From: Sedimentisphaerales bacterium
Lineage (GTDB): Bacteria > Planctomycetota > Phycisphaerae > Sedimentisphaerales > SM23-30
Direction: 5' to 3'
Assembly: GCA_963663965.2 (NCBI GenBank)
Contig: CAXXFK010000033.1
Span: forward strand, 96,001-160,000
DNA: 64,000 bases
The position numbers and the translations under genes were made by a program. Below are positions 56,335 to 64,000 of this stretch, in pieces (position 1 is the first letter of the stretch; the number at the start of each line of letters is the position of its first letter). Below the pieces are notes generated by a model. The model worked only from the letters and a program-made list of their open reading frames with translations. It had not been told where the DNA came from and did not search any database.

Positions 56335-59300
56335 ATGCGTATTCACTATAGATGGATGTCGGTAATAATTTTGATCTGTGTGATGGTATGTGCTGGTACA
56401 AGCCTGGAAGAAGGATTTTTGCAGCCACCGCACGAGGCCAGGCCGCAAACCTGGTGGCACTGGATGAATGGGAATGTGACGGCAGAAGGCATAACAGCCG
56501 ATCTGGAGGCGATGGCCCGGGTGGGTATCGGAGGGGTGATGGCCTTCAGTGTGGGATTTGAGGAGCCCGGCCCGGTTCGATATATGTCGCCTGAATGGCA
56601 ACGGCTGATCGTACATGCTGCGGGTGAATGTCAACGGCTTGGACTGGACTTTACCACCCATAATTGCGATGGTTGGAGTACGACCGGCGGGCCCTGGATT
56701 ACGCCGGAAAAATCGATGCAGAAACTGGTCTGGAGTGAATGTCAGATCGATGGCGGCCGGCTTGTGGATGAGGTGTTGCCACATCCACCGGTGGTACATG
56801 GCTTATTTCAGGATGTCTGTCAGCGTTCATTTGAGCAGTTCTCTTTATCGCAAGCAAAGACAGGAACTTATTATCAGGATGTGGCGGTACTGGCATTTCC
56901 GTCGATCAAGCAGGATCCAGATATTTCTGTCTATCGACCGGATGTGATTACGGATGTGCCGGGTTTGCCGTTGCGTCATCTGATCGATGGCGATGTGAAC
57001 ACCACGATTGAGATGCCGGGCCCGGCTCCGGGCCAGACCCATTATATTCAGTTTAACTTTACGGCGCCATTTACCTGCCGGTCGGTGACCTGGCTGGGCG
57101 ATCATTATTTGATGCCGGGGGAGGGTGTATTTCAATATAGTCATGATGGTGAGCATTTTGTGGATATCTGCCCGATTGCCATGCCGGGATTCTGGGCCCG
57201 ATTTATTCCCAATACGTTTTCTTTTGAGCCGGTGACCGCGCGTTATTTTCGGTTTGTGTGCACCAAACCGGGTTTGATCGGGAAGTTTGGCCTGGCTGAG
57301 TTGAGGTTGTCCAGCCAACCTTATCTTCACGCCTGGCAGAATAAGGCGGGCTTTGGCGTTATTGCCACACACGAAACTCCCGTGGCGGCCGTTCCGGCAG
57401 ATTATATTGTTTCACGCAAACAGGTCATTGATTTGACCGACAAAATGAGTGTGGAAGGTCAGCTGAACTGGCAGGCGCCGCCGGGTAACTGGACGATTCT
57501 TCGCTTTGGGTATACCCCTACCGGGACTAAGAACCGGCCGGCCACGCCTGAAGGCACGGGGCTGGAATGCGACAAGCTGAGTCAGGAGGCGGTTCGGTTT
57601 CATTTTTCGCAGGTCATGGCGAAGCTGCTGGCGCAATGCGGCCCGGCGCAAAAAGGCGGCATGACGGGGATGCTGGTAGATAGCTGGGAAGCGTTTTTTC
57701 AGAACTGGACACAACAGATGCCGGCGGAGTTCAAGCAACGCCGGAATTATAACCTGATCAGCTGGTTGCCGGTGTTGGCGGGTTATGTTGTCGGCAGTGT
57801 GGATGAATCAGAGCGTTTTCTGGACGATTTTCGCAGAACCCTCAGCGATATGCTGGTGGAAAATTATTTTGATGTTCTGGCGCAACTGGCGCATGAAAAC
57901 GGTTTGAAACTGGTCACGGAAATCTATGGCAATACGATCGCTGTCGATACGTTTCGCGCCCAACGGGCGGCGGATATTTCCATGGGAGAGTTCTGGCTGA
58001 GGCCGGGCGCCGATGAATTCGCCTGGAACTGCAAAGAGACGGCTTCCTGTGCCCATGTCTATGGCAGAATTATTGTGGGCGCGGAATCGTTTACCTGCGG
58101 GCCGCATAACCGTACCAACTGGAATGAGACGCCTTATGATATGAAAGCGGTGGGGGATATGCATCTGGCGGCCGGAATCAATCGCATCGTCTTTCACACC
58201 TCCAGTCATCAACCCTGGCTGGATCGATATCCCGGCATGACATTCGGGCCTCACGGGATCCATTTTGAGCGTACCCAGACCTGGTGGGAGCAAAGCCGGG
58301 CCTGGCTGGATTATCTGGCCCGATGTCAATATTTACTGATGCAGGGAGTGCCAGTAGTTGATGTCTGTTATTTTCTGGGTGAAGAGATTCCCAATACATT
58401 GCCTCCCCGTGATGAATTGTGGCTGGAATTGCCGGAGGGCTACGAATATGATGGGTGTAATGCCGAAGCACTCCAGACGCGAATGAAGGTTCGGAATGAA
58501 CGTCTTGTCATGCCGGATGGTATGAGCTATGCGATTTTACTGTTACCCCGGGAATATCGGATTTCTGATCGTACCATGATGAAACTGGATCAATTATTGA
58601 GCGATGGGGCGATTCTGGTCGGGCCGCCCCCGCGGGGAGTTGCGGGATTATCCGGCTATCCTGACAGCCAAACCAATGTGGCCGACCTGGCTAATACCAT
58701 GTGGGGCAAATGTGATGGGAAAAGCAAAACGATTAATTACTATGGCAAAGGTAAAGTTATTTATGGCCAGGATCTGAAGCAGATCTTCCAATCCATGAAA
58801 TTGCATCCAGATTTTATCTGGCGTTCGGATAATCCCAAGGCCCGTCTGAGTTATAATCATCGGGTGGAGAATGATACTGATATTTATTTTCTGGCTACTG
58901 AGAACCGTGAATGTGCCCGGTTTGAATGCAGTTTTCGCATCAAGGACCGTCAGCCCGAAATCTGGCATCCAGATACGGGCCAAATTGAGCGTCCGGCAGA
59001 TTTTCGCCAGGAAAATGGACTTACGAACATTACAATTGATTTTGAACCCTCCGGATCCATGTTTGTTATTTTCCGCAAGCCAGCCATTTCCAAACCATTG
59101 CATTGGAAACAAGCCGGTCCTGTTTCAGTGGAACTCCCAGGTGAAGCGCTTAGATTAAATAAAAACGGACATTATGAGTTCAGTGTGTTTCAAAATGGTA
59201 AATGGAATTTTAAGACGACTGATGAAAGATCGTTGTTGATCGAAATGGACGATTTGCCGGCAGTTTCACATTTGAATATTCCCTGGCAGGTGACTTTTGA

Positions 59301-59784
59301 TCCAAGATGGGGAGGACCTGGTCAGGTTACATTTGATCACTTGCAATCGTGGTCGGAACATCCTGATGAAGGGATAAAATACTATTCTGGGACCGCGGTG
59401 TATCGGTCGCATTTTGATGTGCCGGACAGCCTTATCAATCAGGCAGATGCATTGATATTGGATCTTGGAGAGATTGCCGATATGGCCGAAGTTAAACTGA
59501 ATGGTTACGATTTTGGAATACTCTGGAAGCCTCCCTATCGTAAGGAGGTGACCAGCGCCTTACGTTCTGAAAACAATCAAATCGAAATCCGGATTACGAA
59601 TGTCTGGCGAAATCGATTAATCGGGGACAGTCAAAGGGCTCCCGATCGGCGAATCACCTGGTATTCCTGGCATGAAAAATACTATACTCCTGATTCGCCG
59701 CTTCAGCCGGCCGGAATGATCGGGCCTGTCCGGCTCATTCCTGGGAAAATAATGGTTATTCAGCCCAAGAAAATCGTCCGATAA
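56335..59784 (+). CDS. GH106-like alpha-L-rhamnosidase
   Basis: ARPQTWWHWMNGN, GWSTTGGPWI, GLECDKL, DSWE, GAESFT, YYSGTAVY, LWKPPY. Confidence 0.9.
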   Translation: MRIHYRWMSVIILICVMVCAGTSLEEGFLQPPHEARPQTWWHWMNGNVTAEGITADLEAMARVGIGGVMAFSVGFEEPGPVRYMSPEWQRLIVHAAGECQRLGLDFTTHNCDGWSTTGGPWITPEKSMQKLVWSECQIDGGRLVDEVLPHPPVVHGLFQDVCQRSFEQFSLSQAKTGTYYQDVAVLAFPSIKQDPDISVYRPDVITDVPGLPLRHLIDGDVNTTIEMPGPAPGQTHYIQFNFTAPFTCRSVTWLGDHYLMPGEGVFQYSHDGEHFVDICPIAMPGFWARFIPNTFSFEPVTARYFRFVCTKPGLIGKFGLAELRLSSQPYLHAWQNKAGFGVIATHETPVAAVPADYIVSRKQVIDLTDKMSVEGQLNWQAPPGNWTILRFGYTPTGTKNRPATPEGTGLECDKLSQEAVRFHFSQVMAKLLAQCGPAQKGGMTGMLVDSWEAFFQNWTQQMPAEFKQRRNYNLISWLPVLAGYVVGSVDESERFLDDFRRTLSDMLVENYFDVLAQLAHENGLKLVTEIYGNTIAVDTFRAQRAADISMGEFWLRPGADEFAWNCKETASCAHVYGRIIVGAESFTCGPHNRTNWNETPYDMKAVGDMHLAAGINRIVFHTSSHQPWLDRYPGMTFGPHGIHFERTQTWWEQSRAWLDYLARCQYLLMQGVPVVDVCYFLGEEIPNTLPPRDELWLELPEGYEYDGCNAEALQTRMKVRNERLVMPDGMSYAILLLPREYRISDRTMMKLDQLLSDGAILVGPPPRGVAGLSGYPDSQTNVADLANTMWGKCDGKSKTINYYGKGKVIYGQDLKQIFQSMKLHPDFIWRSDNPKARLSYNHRVENDTDIYFLATENRECARFECSFRIKDRQPEIWHPDTGQIERPADFRQENGLTNITIDFEPSGSMFVIFRKPAISKPLHWKQAGPVSVELPGEALRLNKNGHYEFSVFQNGKWNFKTTDERSLLIEMDDLPAVSHLNIPWQVTFDPRWGGPGQVTFDHLQSWSEHPDEGIKYYSGTAVYRSHFDVPDSLINQADALILDLGEIADMAEVKLNGYDFGILWKPPYRKEVTSALRSENNQIEIRITNVWRNRLIGDSQRAPDRRITWYSWHEKYYTPDSPLQPAGMIGPVRLIPGKIMVIQPKKIVR

Positions 59785-59800
59785 TTAGTTAAGAAATTAT

Positions 59801-59870
59801 AAAAAAAATCCCGCCTCTGAGGCAGGTTTGTTCGGACTCTGACATGTCCAGGAGATCATGAAGAAGAAGT
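59801..59870 (-). ncRNA. Candidate sRNA copy 1 (~70 nt)
   Basis: Promoter TTGCCC(59905-59900)-17-TATATT(59882-59877); CU-rich 5' end; ggac/gtcc hairpin; terminator cctgcct-cag-aggcggg followed by a+T8. Confidence 0.6.
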
Positions 59871-60046
59871 ACAGTAAATATAATATTTAAATTAACCTGG
59901 GGCAAATTTTGCCGTTGATAAAATGCATATTTTTATAATCTGGCGTATGTAAACACTTAGGTTTAAATTTCTTAGATTGAATTGAAGCGAGTCGGAAAAG
60001 TATTTACAGGTCTTTAGTCATGGTCCGATAATCAGATTTTTTAGAC

Positions 60047-60122
60047 AAAAAAAATCCCACCTCTGAGGCAGGCTTGTTTGGACTCTGACATGTCCTGGAG
60101 AATTATATAATGAAGAAGAAGT
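60047..60122 (-). ncRNA. Candidate sRNA copy 2 (~76 nt), paralog of copy 1
   Basis: Promoter TTGCCT(60157-60152)-17-TATACT(60134-60129); same 5' end, hairpin and terminator. Confidence 0.6.
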
Positions 60123-60625
60123 ACTTATAGTATAAAAAATAAATCTAAATAAGGCAAATCGAACGGGATATTTTTTTGAGATGAAATTTGAGTCAAGTCG
60201 ATTCTATTTGAAATTATACCCATCCCGTTATGGTGCATTTCAAATCAAGAGGGAACCTGAATGAACGTTTAAAAAACCCGGGAAAACCGGTGATTGATGA
60301 TGAAGAACTCCACCCTGTGTCATAAACGCAGGGGGTGTGGTATTTTGATCAATCTGTGGTTATTTGTCTGCTGAAATCTTCAGGAGACGTTTGCCCATTT
60401 TTTGTAGGAAAATTGGGGTAACTTATTGGATTTCGCTGAGTTAGCGCTCGACTTCCTGAAGTGTAACGCCCCGAAAAAGTCCGGGTGTGAATGGCCGTTC
60501 TAGACTCAGACTCATCAGCCAATTTCTGATTCAGGAATTTGTCTGATGGAATAAGAGTCAGTCATTTAAACATATTAATGGTCGGGCATGAGTTGTCATG
60601 TCTGGCCATTTTATTCTTCAGGCAT

Positions 60626-60651
60626 AAAAAAGGCCGACTTAAGGGTCGGCC
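60626..60651 (-). terminator. Intrinsic terminator (minus strand)
   Basis: ggccgac-cctta-a-gtcggcc-tttttt on the minus strand. Confidence 0.7.
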
Positions 60652-60749
60652 GTTAGAAGAGGATTCGTTTATAGGATTCAAATTTTGGATTTATAACATG
60701 TTTTGCTAATTACTAGTTCTCTAATATTTGTTTGTTATTTTCCTTTTGA

Positions 60750-61040
60750 TTAATTTGAAGGCGGCCCATGCGCCTGAAATGAGCCAATTTGATCAAGTTC
60801 TTCCCTTTTTACATTAAATTCCCATAGGGGATTGGATTCCGCTTTCCTGGTGGCAATTGATTGTGTCCAGGATTGCTGACGATTAGATACATTTATTTCC
60901 CAATCGGGCGAGTTAGAAAGTAATTTAGTTTGGGAATCTGGATAATTATGTTTGAACCAGAATTCAATGGATCTAATAATCCGAAACAGACTCAGATAAA
61001 ACAGGAAAACCGGTCTTGGCATGTCGTATTGGGTTCCCAT
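60750..61040 (-). CDS. Small hypothetical protein (96 aa)
   Basis: Good RBS (aggag-ataaaaa-ATG) and a downstream terminator; no recognisable motif. Confidence 0.4.
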   Translation of the reverse strand: MGTQYDMPRPVFLFYLSLFRIIRSIEFWFKHNYPDSQTKLLSNSPDWEINVSNRQQSWTQSIATRKAESNPLWEFNVKREELDQIGSFQAHGPPSN

Positions 61041-61294
61041 TTTTTATCTCCTATTAGGGATTACAATAACTCATCTGCCAGTTTTACATTTTCCATCCAG
61101 TATTCGGGATTCATTTCGTCAAGATGATGACATTTCGATAAAGGAAAAATTTAAAATTTATGCCTGTTCGGTTTCATGAATATGATAAAATGCCCGATAA
61201 CACGGCCTGAAACTGGTTATAAGGGCTGAGATCAGTATTGATAGTGGCATCTGATATAACAGAAAGCTTTAATAGTATTTTTGAAAAATTATGT

Positions 61295-62167
61295 ATGGCT
61301 ATCCCAGTAAAAAAAATAACCGATAACCCCGCGCAACTTGCCGAATCTCCTGTGTGGGATCCGATCCGGCAGGTTTTATATTGGACTGATATTCCGGCAG
61401 GTCAGGTATGGAAATATGATCCAGACTGTGGCCGAAGTGAAATGGTCTGGCAGGGAACCATGATGATTGGTGGTTTAACTCTGGCTGAGGCTGGATTGAT
61501 TTTGTATGGTAATCAAGGGATCTGGCGGGGATACTGGCAGGCTGATGGTACACTGGGAGGGCTGATATCCATTTTTGATATAAAACTGGCAGGGGATGAA
61601 CGATTTAATGATGTCATAGCGGATCCAAGAGGTCGTGTTTTTGCTGGAACCTTGACAGAAAGAAGAGCCGATTGTTCACTATTTTTGCTAAAAAAGGGCT
61701 GCCCAGAGATGCGAGTGTTATCTGATATTGGTAATTCAAACGGCCTGGGCTTTTCGCCTGATTTGAAGTGGCTGTATCATACCGATACCCAGATCAGAAC
61801 GATAAAACGATATGAATATGATATTGAGAGCGGCCGGATTGAGCATCCAAAATTAGTATTTGAGGGGAAGGAAGAAAACGGCAAGCCTGACGGTATGACG
61901 GTAGACTGTGAAGGATGTCTCTGGGTGGCCTGTTATTATGCCGGGAAGGTTTTAAGGTTGGATTCTGATGGTAACTTGTTGAAAGAAATAGAGATACCTG
62001 CAAAGAATGTTACCAGCGTCGCTTTTGGAGGATCGGATTTCCAGGATCTTTATATTACCACTGCCCGCAATAAATCCACCAGTCATGCGTCTGATGGAGG
62101 GGGGAATCTCTATTGTTGTACTCCCGGGGTGAAAGGTCGGGCAGAATGGATTGCGCAGATTGGATGA
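61295..62167 (+). CDS. SMP-30/gluconolactonase family sugar lactonase
   Basis: LAESPVWD, YWTDI, RFND, SNGLGFSPD, PDGMTVD, TSVAFGG. Confidence 0.93.
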   Translation: MAIPVKKITDNPAQLAESPVWDPIRQVLYWTDIPAGQVWKYDPDCGRSEMVWQGTMMIGGLTLAEAGLILYGNQGIWRGYWQADGTLGGLISIFDIKLAGDERFNDVIADPRGRVFAGTLTERRADCSLFLLKKGCPEMRVLSDIGNSNGLGFSPDLKWLYHTDTQIRTIKRYEYDIESGRIEHPKLVFEGKEENGKPDGMTVDCEGCLWVACYYAGKVLRLDSDGNLLKEIEIPAKNVTSVAFGGSDFQDLYITTARNKSTSHASDGGGNLYCCTPGVKGRAEWIAQIG

Positions 62168-62201
62168 ACTTACATTTTCTGTTATCAAAAGGATATTCTT
62201 A

Positions 62202-64000
62202 ATGACGCTCAAGCGACCGGCTGTAAAACAATTCAATTTAACTCTTTTATGCGGTGTTGTTTTTTTGTTCTGTGTGATGGCACCCCGTATGCTTCAGGGA
62301 GCCCCCAAAGACCGTATTGCCAGCCAAATGGTATCACTGAAATTGGCGATTAAGGATTTAATGGATCAATATGGCAGCCAATATCCTGCAGGTTCAGATT
62401 ATCTGAAGCGTCTGGCAGAGCTGGAGAGATTGGCTAACGAAAATGGTAAAAAGGCCATTGATACATTCTACACTCTTCAGAGGGAGGCCTTACTTACTAA
62501 TCCGTTACTTGACTTTGAGCAGGTATTGGTTGTCCAACGTAAACTGGGGGGGCAGAATATTGGATTGCCGCAGAACTGGCAGGGCAATTGCGCTCTGCCG
62601 CGTAATGGTTACGATGACGGAGTGGTTCGTTTAAACCTAAAAGATGGAACTCTTCAGGATGTGTTTCGTCCGCTACAACCCAGTTTTGTTGGGGATGTCG
62701 ATCTGCATTGGGATGGTGATCGATTTTTATTTTCCATGCTGGACTCCAACCAGCGTTGGCAGGTCTGGGAATACGAGCTTACCTCCAGGCAATTGCGGCC
62801 GGTAACCACCTCAGTTAAAGGCGATTACGATAATTATGATGGTTGCTACCTGCCGGATAATCGAATGGTGTTTGCCTCGACCCGGGTTTTTCAGGGGGTT
62901 CCTTGTGTGGGTGGTGGAAATTGGGTGGCCAATCTTTTTTTGTGTCAGAATGATGGCAGTGGTATTCGCCGCTTGTGTTTTGATCAGGACCATAACTGGT
63001 GCCCATCGGTAATGCCGGATGGCCGGATATTATATACCCGTTGGGAATACTCCGATACATCACATTACTTTACCCGTCTGCTCATGGCCATGAATCCGGA
63101 TGGAACGAATCAGATGTCATATTATGGCAGTAATTCCTACTGGCCCAATTCGTTATTTTATGCACGATCCATTCCGGGCAGTTCCACCAAATTTGTCGGG
63201 ATCGTATCCGGCCATCATGGCGTAGCCCGAATGGGTGAATTGCATCTGTTTGATACTGCCCGAGGCCAGTTTGAGGCGGATGGCGTGATCCAGCAGATAC
63301 CCGGTTATGGCAAAAAAGTTCAGGCGAAGATTGAGGATCAACTGGTGAATGGTTCCTGGCCCAAGTTTTTACATCCCTGGCCACTGAGTGAAAAATATTT
63401 CCTCGTTGCCATGCAACCTGACGCTCGATCCTTGTGGGGAATTTATCTGGTCGATATTTTCGATAATATGGTTCTGCTAAAAGAGTTGGATGGATACGCT
63501 CTGTTTGAACCGGTTCCCTTGACCAGGCGGCCGGTACCTTCGGTTATTCCGGATCGAATCGATCCGCAACTCAAAGAAGCAAAAGTATATCTGACGGATG
63601 TTTATTTTGGCCCTGGCTTATATGGGGTGCCTCGGGGCACCATTAAGAATCTGAGAATTTTCGCGTTTCATTATGCGTATCCCCAAATGGGTGGCCATAA
63701 GAATATTGCCGTTGAAGGAACCTGGGATGTCCATCGCATATTAGGAACCGTGCCGGTGGAGACGGATGGGTCGGCATTTTTCCAGGTACCGGCCAACACA
63801 CCCCTGGCAGTACAACCTCTGGATGAAAAGGGAAGGGCCGTGCAAGTCATGCGCAGCTGGTTTACTGCCATGCCGGGTGAGACGATCAGTTGTATTGGCT
63901 GCCATGAGCGGAGCAATAGTGTGCCGCCCAGCCGGGAAACCATTGCCGCAAGACGCCAGCCCGATACTATTAAAGAATGGTATGGTCCGGCACGCGGTTT
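62202..64000 (+). CDS. Secreted HzsA-like beta-propeller protein, 3'-truncated by the window (not in the ORF track)
   Basis: Own translation: MTLKRPAVK..LLTNPLLDF..GLPQNWQG..YTRWEY..MNPDGT..GTVPVETDGSA..MRSWFTAMPGETISCIGCHE; CxxCH is in frame with the start. Confidence 0.82.
   Translation, partial: MTLKRPAVKQFNLTLLCGVVFLFCVMAPRMLQGAPKDRIASQMVSLKLAIKDLMDQYGSQYPAGSDYLKRLAELERLANENGKKAIDTFYTLQREALLTNPLLDFEQVLVVQRKLGGQNIGLPQNWQGNCALPRNGYDDGVVRLNLKDGTLQDVFRPLQPSFVGDVDLHWDGDRFLFSMLDSNQRWQVWEYELTSRQLRPVTTSVKGDYDNYDGCYLPDNRMVFASTRVFQGVPCVGGGNWVANLFLCQNDGSGIRRLCFDQDHNWCPSVMPDGRILYTRWEYSDTSHYFTRLLMAMNPDGTNQMSYYGSNSYWPNSLFYARSIPGSSTKFVGIVSGHHGVARMGELHLFDTARGQFEADGVIQQIPGYGKKVQAKIEDQLVNGSWPKFLHPWPLSEKYFLVAMQPDARSLWGIYLVDIFDNMVLLKELDGYALFEPVPLTRRPVPSVIPDRIDPQLKEAKVYLTDVYFGPGLYGVPRGTIKNLRIFAFHYAYPQMGGHKNIAVEGTWDVHRILGTVPVETDGSAFFQVPANTPLAVQPLDEKGRAVQVMRSWFTAMPGETISCIGCHERSNSVPPSRETIAARRQPDTIKEWYGPARG

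Follow-up and report, generated by a model that had tools for sequence, protein, structure and literature searches.

The stretch of DNA analyzed here (the window; 64,000 nucleotides of a contig from a Sedimentisphaerales bacterium) carries on its minus strand two tandem units, A and B, each with a promoter, a predicted small RNA (sRNA) of 76 (A) or 70 nt (B), and an intrinsic terminator. The units lie where a preliminary description of the sequence had placed them; a GH106 rhamnosidase gene converges on them from the opposite strand. We read them as sibling genes, members of a trans-acting sRNA family that is restricted to one lineage and whose 5' tails would block translation start sites, with one operon as the conserved target, and assign this reading a probability of about 0.68.

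Two predicted sRNA units facing a GH106 gene

The locus contains the following features, the transcript starts being predicted from the position of the -10 hexamer.

60152..60157, minus strand: -35 hexamer of unit A, TTGCCT (13 of the 14 family members have TTGC here and the remaining one TTGG)
60129..60134, minus strand: -10 hexamer of unit A, TATACT, 17-bp spacer (all 14 copies have TAnnnT at this distance)
60047..60122, minus strand: predicted sRNA A, 76 nt (86 bits with a covariance model that contains its own sequence)
60097..60122, minus strand: 5' tail of sRNA A, predicted to be unpaired (folding, target scan), with an anti-start-codon part (60110-60122), a 9-nt A/U spacer and the anti-Shine-Dalgarno (anti-SD) sequence CUCC (60097-60100)
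60080..60095, minus strand: hairpin 1 of sRNA A, loop motif GUCAGA at 60084-60089
60047..60072, minus strand: intrinsic terminator of sRNA A, stem-loop 60056-60072, U8 60047-60054
60023..60031, minus strand: TTATNRGAC motif, 25 bp past the A terminator stem and upstream of promoter B
59900..59905, minus strand: -35 hexamer of unit B, TTGCCC (promoter scan)
59877..59882, minus strand: -10 hexamer of unit B, TATATT, 17-bp spacer (promoter scan)
59801..59870, minus strand: predicted sRNA B, 70 nt (84 bits, model again containing its own sequence)
59851..59870, minus strand: 5' tail of sRNA B, with an anti-start-codon part (59858-59870), a 3-nt spacer and the anti-SD (59851-59854)
59834..59849, minus strand: hairpin 1 of sRNA B, loop motif GUCAGA at 59838-59843
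59801..59826, minus strand: intrinsic terminator of sRNA B, stem-loop 59810-59826, U8 59801-59808
59776..59784, minus strand: TTATNRGAC motif, 26 bp past the B terminator stem, overlapping the stop of the convergent gene
56335..59784, plus strand: GH106 alpha-L-rhamnosidase-family gene, the convergent neighbor, not conserved beside the other copies

Both promoters have a 17-bp spacer, and both RNAs are predicted to start at the 7th base after the -10 hexamer with an identical 13-nt sequence; hairpin 1 has a 4-bp stem. The conserved core noted in the preliminary description holds for the 55-nt 3' parts (93% identical, 246 bp apart) and less well for the 53-nt 5'/promoter parts (72% identical, 252 bp apart). 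Also as described before, the difference between the two terminator stems preserves pairing (G-C versus G-U).

The genome of the window (G000; 7.2 Mb, 94.6% complete) contains exactly two copies of the unit, the next best blastn match having an E value of 0.6. With one to five copies in other genomes and no bounding inverted repeat, the units are not miniature inverted-repeat transposable elements or repetitive extragenic palindromes (REPs). Rfam 15 gave no match overlapping them at E values up to 5 (positions 57000-63000), in line with the preliminary description, which did not recognize the family, and nothing at gathering score was found over the sRNA in nine homolog loci.

Within the window, the promoter scan did not exceed chance (5 found versus 5.2 expected), the terminator scan gave 4 matches versus 1.3 expected, and the folding energy of the units was not significant (z of -0.19 and -0.91). 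The case against chance therefore comes from the 12 further copies in other genomes and not from the promoter or folding statistics of the window.

The approximately 1.1 kb upstream of unit A (60160-61290) contain no convincing gene, two short open reading frames without Pfam matches, a minus-strand terminator (60632-60651) and a 15-bp hairpin (60577-60610). Elsewhere in the intergenic DNA of G000, several 8-mers are strongly over-represented (e.g., ACGAACCC, GCTGCGCT and GACAGGAT); they are probably REP-like repeat families.

A family of predicted RNAs with an invariant loop

The preliminary description had suggested looking for homologs in relatives, and these exist. A blastn search over 40 relatives gave four homologs, and a covariance model built from six sequences and run over 25 genomes of the window's taxonomic family detected 14 copies in nine of them (43 to 86 bits); a rebuilt model recovered the same 14. 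The carriers include five of the nine near-complete genomes of this taxonomic family. Two copies are present in G000, five in G013 (two of them in tandem), and one in each of the seven others. Thus, G000 and G013 each hold at least two homologous standalone genes, as sibling sRNAs do. The predicted RNAs are about 66 to 83 nt long.

The scans of the order, class and phylum scored first-look candidates or exact patterns only, and therefore diverged members can be missed. Within that scope, no credible member was detected in 126 genomes of the same order outside the taxonomic family (two weak matches were rejected) or in 150 genomes of the class, and the single match of a pattern scan over 400 genomes of the phylum was rejected. 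All 22 matches of a metagenome pattern scan were ordinary terminators (at most 29 bits versus at least 43 for members), and among viral contigs the best of 80 loci scored, out of at least 117 matches, reached 16 bits. A GTDB pattern scan gave six matches, three of which score as members (56 to 84 bits); these may duplicate genomes already counted and are left out of the 14-copy total. Two of them (L032 and L035) are labeled Sedimentisphaerales and one (L030) Pirellulales; the lineage of the sRNA family is probably Sedimentisphaerales. Inside the taxonomic family, promoter-plus-loop and promoter-plus-tail patterns revealed no extra or loop-less members, with six non-member tail matches left unscored.

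Common to all 14 copies are a promoter of the sigma70 type, a 5' tail rich in C and U, a hairpin and a terminator. The promoter pattern, which was written after the sequences had been seen (background 0.007 per 20-nt placement), lies with the same spacing 27 to 39 nt before the loop in 14/14 copies, and the spacer sequences differ. It is also present in 8/8 copies found by a model without the hexamers.

The sole long invariant stretch is GUCAGA (14/14 copies), always located on the 3' side of a 7- to 9-nt loop that caps a stem of 4 to 6 bp. The stem sequences of this hairpin 1 vary, even among the five paralogs of G013. The two arms of one copy pair over at least 4 bp in all 14 cases, and arms swapped between genomes do so in 65 of 160. 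In a model-fitted alignment, which leans to its own structure, double changes were present in 5/5 base pairs, and none of 500 shuffles scored as high. The terminator loop contains (A/U)CAGA in 10/14 copies.

The complement of the invariant loop, UCUGAC, is neither enriched near the gene starts of G000 nor conserved at the operon described below. Given the lack of enrichment at start regions, the GUCAGA loop most likely serves to contact a protein. G000 has CsrA, but Hfq, ProQ and KhpA/B were not detected in it. CsrB/Rsm-type RNAs are short, structured RNAs that sequester a protein with a repeated loop motif. The present family resembles them in being short and structured with a repeated loop motif, in a host that has CsrA, but its motif is CAGA and not GGA. 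A sponge of this type was rejected, as each copy has zero to two GGA, fully unpaired in 1/14 and absent or paired in 13/14.

The neighbors of the sRNA genes vary: aroA in three genomes of one genus, and elsewhere fusA, transfer-messenger RNA (tmRNA), sixA, hisF and others. A convergent gene follows the sRNA gene at 10 of the 12 loci, and two loci are codirectional. The variable neighbors and convergent genes argue against a leader or riboswitch, and the riboswitch/attenuator possibility was discarded. In G017 (L019:1736-2091, minus strand), the sRNA gene faces tmRNA, and a second TTTGCCCC promoter-like site is located just past the sRNA terminator, pointing at tmRNA.

Complementarity of the tails to start regions and to one operon

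Tail A is predicted to be fully unpaired and tail B partly so. The preliminary proposal of sibling trans-acting sRNA genes, with own promoters and with tails pairing to the Shine-Dalgarno sequence (SD) and start codon, is supported as a prediction from sequence. However, complementarity to AUG AAG AAG AAG, on which that proposal had centered, does not extend to the whole family. The anti-start CAU is present in 6/14 copies, with wobble or shifted forms in the others: the five G013 copies have UAU instead, G017 has CAC, and in G011 just the anti-SD/spacer part remains.

We scanned G000 with both tails, using our own heuristics for gene starts and signal peptides (4,967 genes, 4,854 distinct start regions). 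The suspected enrichment of signal-peptide-type genes was indeed observed: 52 (A) and 44 (B) of the top 100 matches were export-like versus 22.5 expected, with 8 to 24 for shuffled tails. Genes for PEP-CTERM proteins accounted for 10 and 7 of the top 50 (tails A and B, respectively) versus 0.85 expected. The two targets named earlier, lacZ and the Gfo gene, ranked poorly (1101/1112 and 4175/2370 of 4,854). The top-100 lists share 36 genes, and the median SD spacer is 8 for matches unique to A and 6 for those unique to B. As the tails differ in the spacing between anti-SD and anti-AUG, A and B would favor different SD spacings.

Among the G000 genes starting with AUG AAG AAN, 55/61 look secreted or N-terminally hydrophobic, and AUG AAG AAG is the rarest coding of a Met-Lys-Lys (MKK) start (21/171). 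The counts of AUG AAG AA versus AUG AAA AA starts are no guide to which genomes carry the sRNA (carriers 0.45-0.57, non-carriers 0.22 and 0.53). Broad targeting of MKK-starting secreted proteins is plausible but would follow from composition.

The candidate operon (G000:C1:155385-157712, minus strand; L227) comprises a gene for a secreted protein, gene X, and then two tandem PEP-CTERM genes, which rank 5-6 for tail B and 16-17 for tail A among the 4,854 start regions. Gene X has homologs in 19/25 genomes of the taxonomic family, mostly with the same PEP-CTERM gene next. A Pfam dockerin was found in 3/7 homologs scanned, and in the top Foldseek list for the gene X model (mean predicted local distance difference test [pLDDT] 70.5) the matches are cohesins nearly throughout (E value of about 1e-5, template modeling score to the target of about 0.4-0.6). 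Gene X would accordingly be modeled as a secreted protein with a cohesin fold and a dockerin; the PEP-CTERM protein gave a poor model (pLDDT 54) and no fold match. G000 has two exosortases. By regular expression, about 83 PEP-CTERM-like and 117 dockerin-like C termini were counted in G000, which suggests a system for surface display akin to a cellulosome.

In all eight carrier genomes in which the operon was found, the tail encoded by the same genome matches it, in differing registers. The G005 tail forms 13-14 perfect pairs from the start codon to codon 5, and the G011 tail, which is devoid of the anti-Lys part, forms 12-13 over SD and spacer (the higher figures, 14 and 13, count one base before the predicted RNA start). 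The G004 and G019 tails are perfectly complementary over 12 nt to the first 12 nt of gene X. The tails of G017 and G023 have 10-nt runs to the operon, and those of G000 and G013 combine a 9-nt run with another helix, at the SD. The exact 13-mer of the G005 tail has two non-self sites in its genome and the exact 12-mers of G011, G004 and G019 have three each, one of them in every case being the operon; G024 (72% complete, gene X not found) has no such site. Moreover, among the 4,854 starts of G000, the G005 tail matches over at least 13 nt only the two tandem PEP-CTERM genes.

When tails and operons of seven genomes were permuted, the cognate pairing was matched or exceeded in 33/5040 permutations by energy and 36/5040 by run length (p of about 0.007). 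The PEP-CTERM gene starts with AUG AAG AAG in 8/8 carriers versus 4/8 non-carriers (Fisher 0.04, the genomes being kin and thus not independent, the non-carriers being incomplete assemblies, and G007, G012 and G016 being omitted as no clear ortholog was present in the fetched loci). For G005, G011, G019 and G023, the operon loci were located solely by protein homology. The matches of the tails to the operon would fit a tail that arose when the PEP-CTERM start region was copied in inverted orientation and then trimmed differently in each lineage, with pairing kept.

The leader of gene X (L227:4411-4560, minus strand) contains two near-invariant words: GAGGCG, some 50-80 nt upstream, and TCTGTTC, immediately preceding the SD. 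Both words are kept in 14/14 aligned genomes, carriers and non-carriers alike, and are possibly a cis-element; no consensus structure and no Rfam match were found (8 loci), and the words are not common before other genes. Pairing of the sRNA loop with the conserved UCUGUUC was rejected, because at 4 bp it is too weak. In G010 (L241:608-653, minus strand), an Rfam Acido-Lenti-1 match (48.9 bits) lies upstream of the gene X operon.

Proposed mechanism and alternatives

Given its conservation, architecture and complementarity, the family would be expected to be transcribed, to pair and repress in vivo, and to use its loop as follows. Each sRNA would be transcribed separately, from a sigma70-type promoter to an intrinsic terminator of its own. 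Its 5' tail, single-stranded and C/U-rich, would pair with the SD, spacer or start codon of an mRNA and block ribosome loading, while the GUCAGA loop may contact a protein. The conserved target would be the surface-display operon of gene X and the following PEP-CTERM gene. Other mRNAs starting with AUG AAG AA, mostly for secreted proteins, would be likely further targets, with A and B selecting different SD spacings through their tail spacing. The invariant loop, the operon tracked by the tails and the 9-bp motif downstream all go beyond the preliminary description.

Several observations weigh against this mechanism. On the side of the target scan, gene starts and signal peptides are heuristic calls; 72-77 start regions of G000 hold a perfect run of at least 9 nt to the tails; and 1/10 full and 2/14 partial shuffles come close in PEP-CTERM genes (6 of the top 50). 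A control tail with C-to-U changes at the lysine codons gave equal or higher enrichment of PEP-CTERM and secreted products, which means that the enrichment reflects the MKK start and not fine tuning. As to the operon, it was picked after the fact from the G000 ranks, it is not the top match there (gene X ranks only 80 and 212), it is also present in 11 genomes in which no sRNA was found, the loci of G004, G013 and G017 were first seen via a start-region pattern, and most of the permutation signal is contributed by G011 and G004. Finally, on a plain MAFFT alignment the covariation of hairpin 1 was not above shuffles (340/500), which we attribute to a 1-nt shift in loop size.

The performance of the control tail, together with the export-like matches and the hydrophobic AUG AAG AAN genes, would also suit generic anti-initiation siblings that dampen many MKK-starting secreted proteins and have no privileged target, the operon being simply the archetype of such a start. 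We consider this unlikely: it leaves unexplained the perfect operon matches of 12-14 nt in three registers (G005, G011, and G004/G019), with their two to three non-self sites each. In addition, a generic tail should carry U, which pairs with A and G; the tails nevertheless retain C facing AAG, even though no MKK coding is rarer than AUG AAG AAG.

Less probable still is a decoy or scaffold RNA that acts through its GUCAGA loop, with a tail of minor importance or left over from the inverted PEP-CTERM start copy. Compatible with such a role are the invariance of the loop despite stems that vary even between the five G013 paralogs, the echo of the loop motif in the terminator loop and the lack of enrichment of its complement near start codons. 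However, the tails have remained complementary while diverging both in sequence and in length, and this requires selection for pairing; the GGA counts are not those of a CsrA-type decoy.

TTATNRGAC, which resembles a DnaA box in its first five letters only, is found 25-27 bp past the sRNA terminator stem in 6/14 copies (three genomes, once reversed; expected rate 0.018 per 100 intergenic bases). It occurs 495 times in G000, 237 of the sites being intergenic although intergenic DNA makes up 18% of the genome, and also beside the loci of relatives. The motif is favored between divergent genes, and its form TTATCRGAC is scarce between convergent ones (2/100); no preferred distance to promoter-like sites was seen. 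Only 4/245 G000 terminators have it 20-32 bp downstream, and two of these belong to the candidate PEP-CTERM genes of the operon (22 and 24 bp). A putative protein bound there could stall polymerase on the U-tract. In G020, the promoter region of an XRE/PuuR-like regulator gene (L006:900-1580) contains two TATCGGAC-type words; its G000 ortholog has none upstream, and the regulator is therefore not taken as the binder.

The location of the motif, in either orientation, and the convergent genes at 10/12 loci would also accord with an insulator or terminator cassette that blocks convergent read-through with a protein roadblock at TTATNRGAC, the RNA being a by-product. This is very improbable, since such a cassette needs no conserved promoter, covarying hairpin or tail matching a distant operon, and two loci are codirectional. 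Least credible is a functional plus strand, on which an SD and a tiny MKK frame (MKKKYL in A, MKKKYSKYNI in B) would encode a leader peptide or type I toxin-like product, with the minus-strand signals antisense or incidental: all U-tracts and promoters are on the RNA strand, and opposite the tail there is no SD-led ATG/GTG frame in 8/14 copies, the others encoding 5-17 dissimilar, nonhydrophobic residues. A type I antitoxin or cis-antisense RNA was rejected on the same grounds.

The reading as trans-acting siblings has counterparts among known sRNAs. Streptococcal CiaR-dependent sRNAs (csRNAs) are described as having unpaired anti-SD and anti-start sequence and, apart from it, a conserved motif for which protein binding was proposed (PMC3091779), and as siblings acting additively on comC (PMC4507080). 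The family of units A and B is predicted to share the unpaired anti-SD/anti-start sequence and has a separate conserved motif. In contrast to csRNAs, it would pair through the free 5' end, ahead of the two hairpins, the motif lies in a loop, and the host belongs to another phylum; the family has no Rfam match. By eye, the CiaR promoter NTTAAG-N5-TTTAAG is absent from the 90 nt before the 14 copies, which have a TTGC/TTGG -35 instead, and the nonamer [A/C]UCCUAAA[A/C] is absent from all 14 RNAs. By analogy, the family would work like csRNAs but is not one of them. The Neisseria siblings NmsR-A and NmsR-B are reported as tandem intergenic genes with their own -35/-10 elements that repress translation via a U/C-rich anti-SD (PMC5362039). 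Tandem layout, own promoters and anti-SD are predicted for units A and B too; the NmsRs differ in their three stem-loops, their tricarboxylic acid cycle mRNA targets and a host that has Hfq, and units A and B have no sequence or Rfam match to them.

The predicted targets share a signal peptide, a PEP-CTERM tail, a cohesin-like fold and a dockerin with PEP-CTERM/exosortase systems and non-cellulosomal cohesin-dockerin scaffolds. The PEP-CTERM/exosortase control described so far is transcriptional (sigma54, PrsK/PrsR) and in Proteobacteria only (PMC1569441). For Limihaloglobus, a scaffoldin with two cohesins has been noted (PMC11557425). Our literature search found no sRNA or post-transcriptional control of PEP-CTERM genes. 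It also found no sRNA family described for the lineage; the search covered listings and the beginnings of abstracts, so lists of candidate motifs from comparative screens that are not in Rfam could include it.

We conclude that the sequence comparison points to a real sRNA family of sibling genes, confined to one lineage and not yet catalogued, whose candidate target operon has comparative support. A fuller, speculative picture, which we consider rather unlikely, would be a planctomycete-specific post-transcriptional switch: the tail would shut anchor and adaptor mRNAs, the loop would recruit a chaperone or nuclease of a new class, and a TTATNRGAC-bound protein would stall polymerase at the terminators of both the sRNA and target PEP-CTERM genes, in one circuit. 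The candidate target makes it feasible to examine sRNA regulation in Planctomycetota directly with a reporter. The cohesin-dockerin/PEP-CTERM operon, present across the taxonomic family, would be marked as a regulated surface-display hub, and the GUCAGA loop may serve as bait for an sRNA-assisting protein in a genome where the known chaperones were not found.
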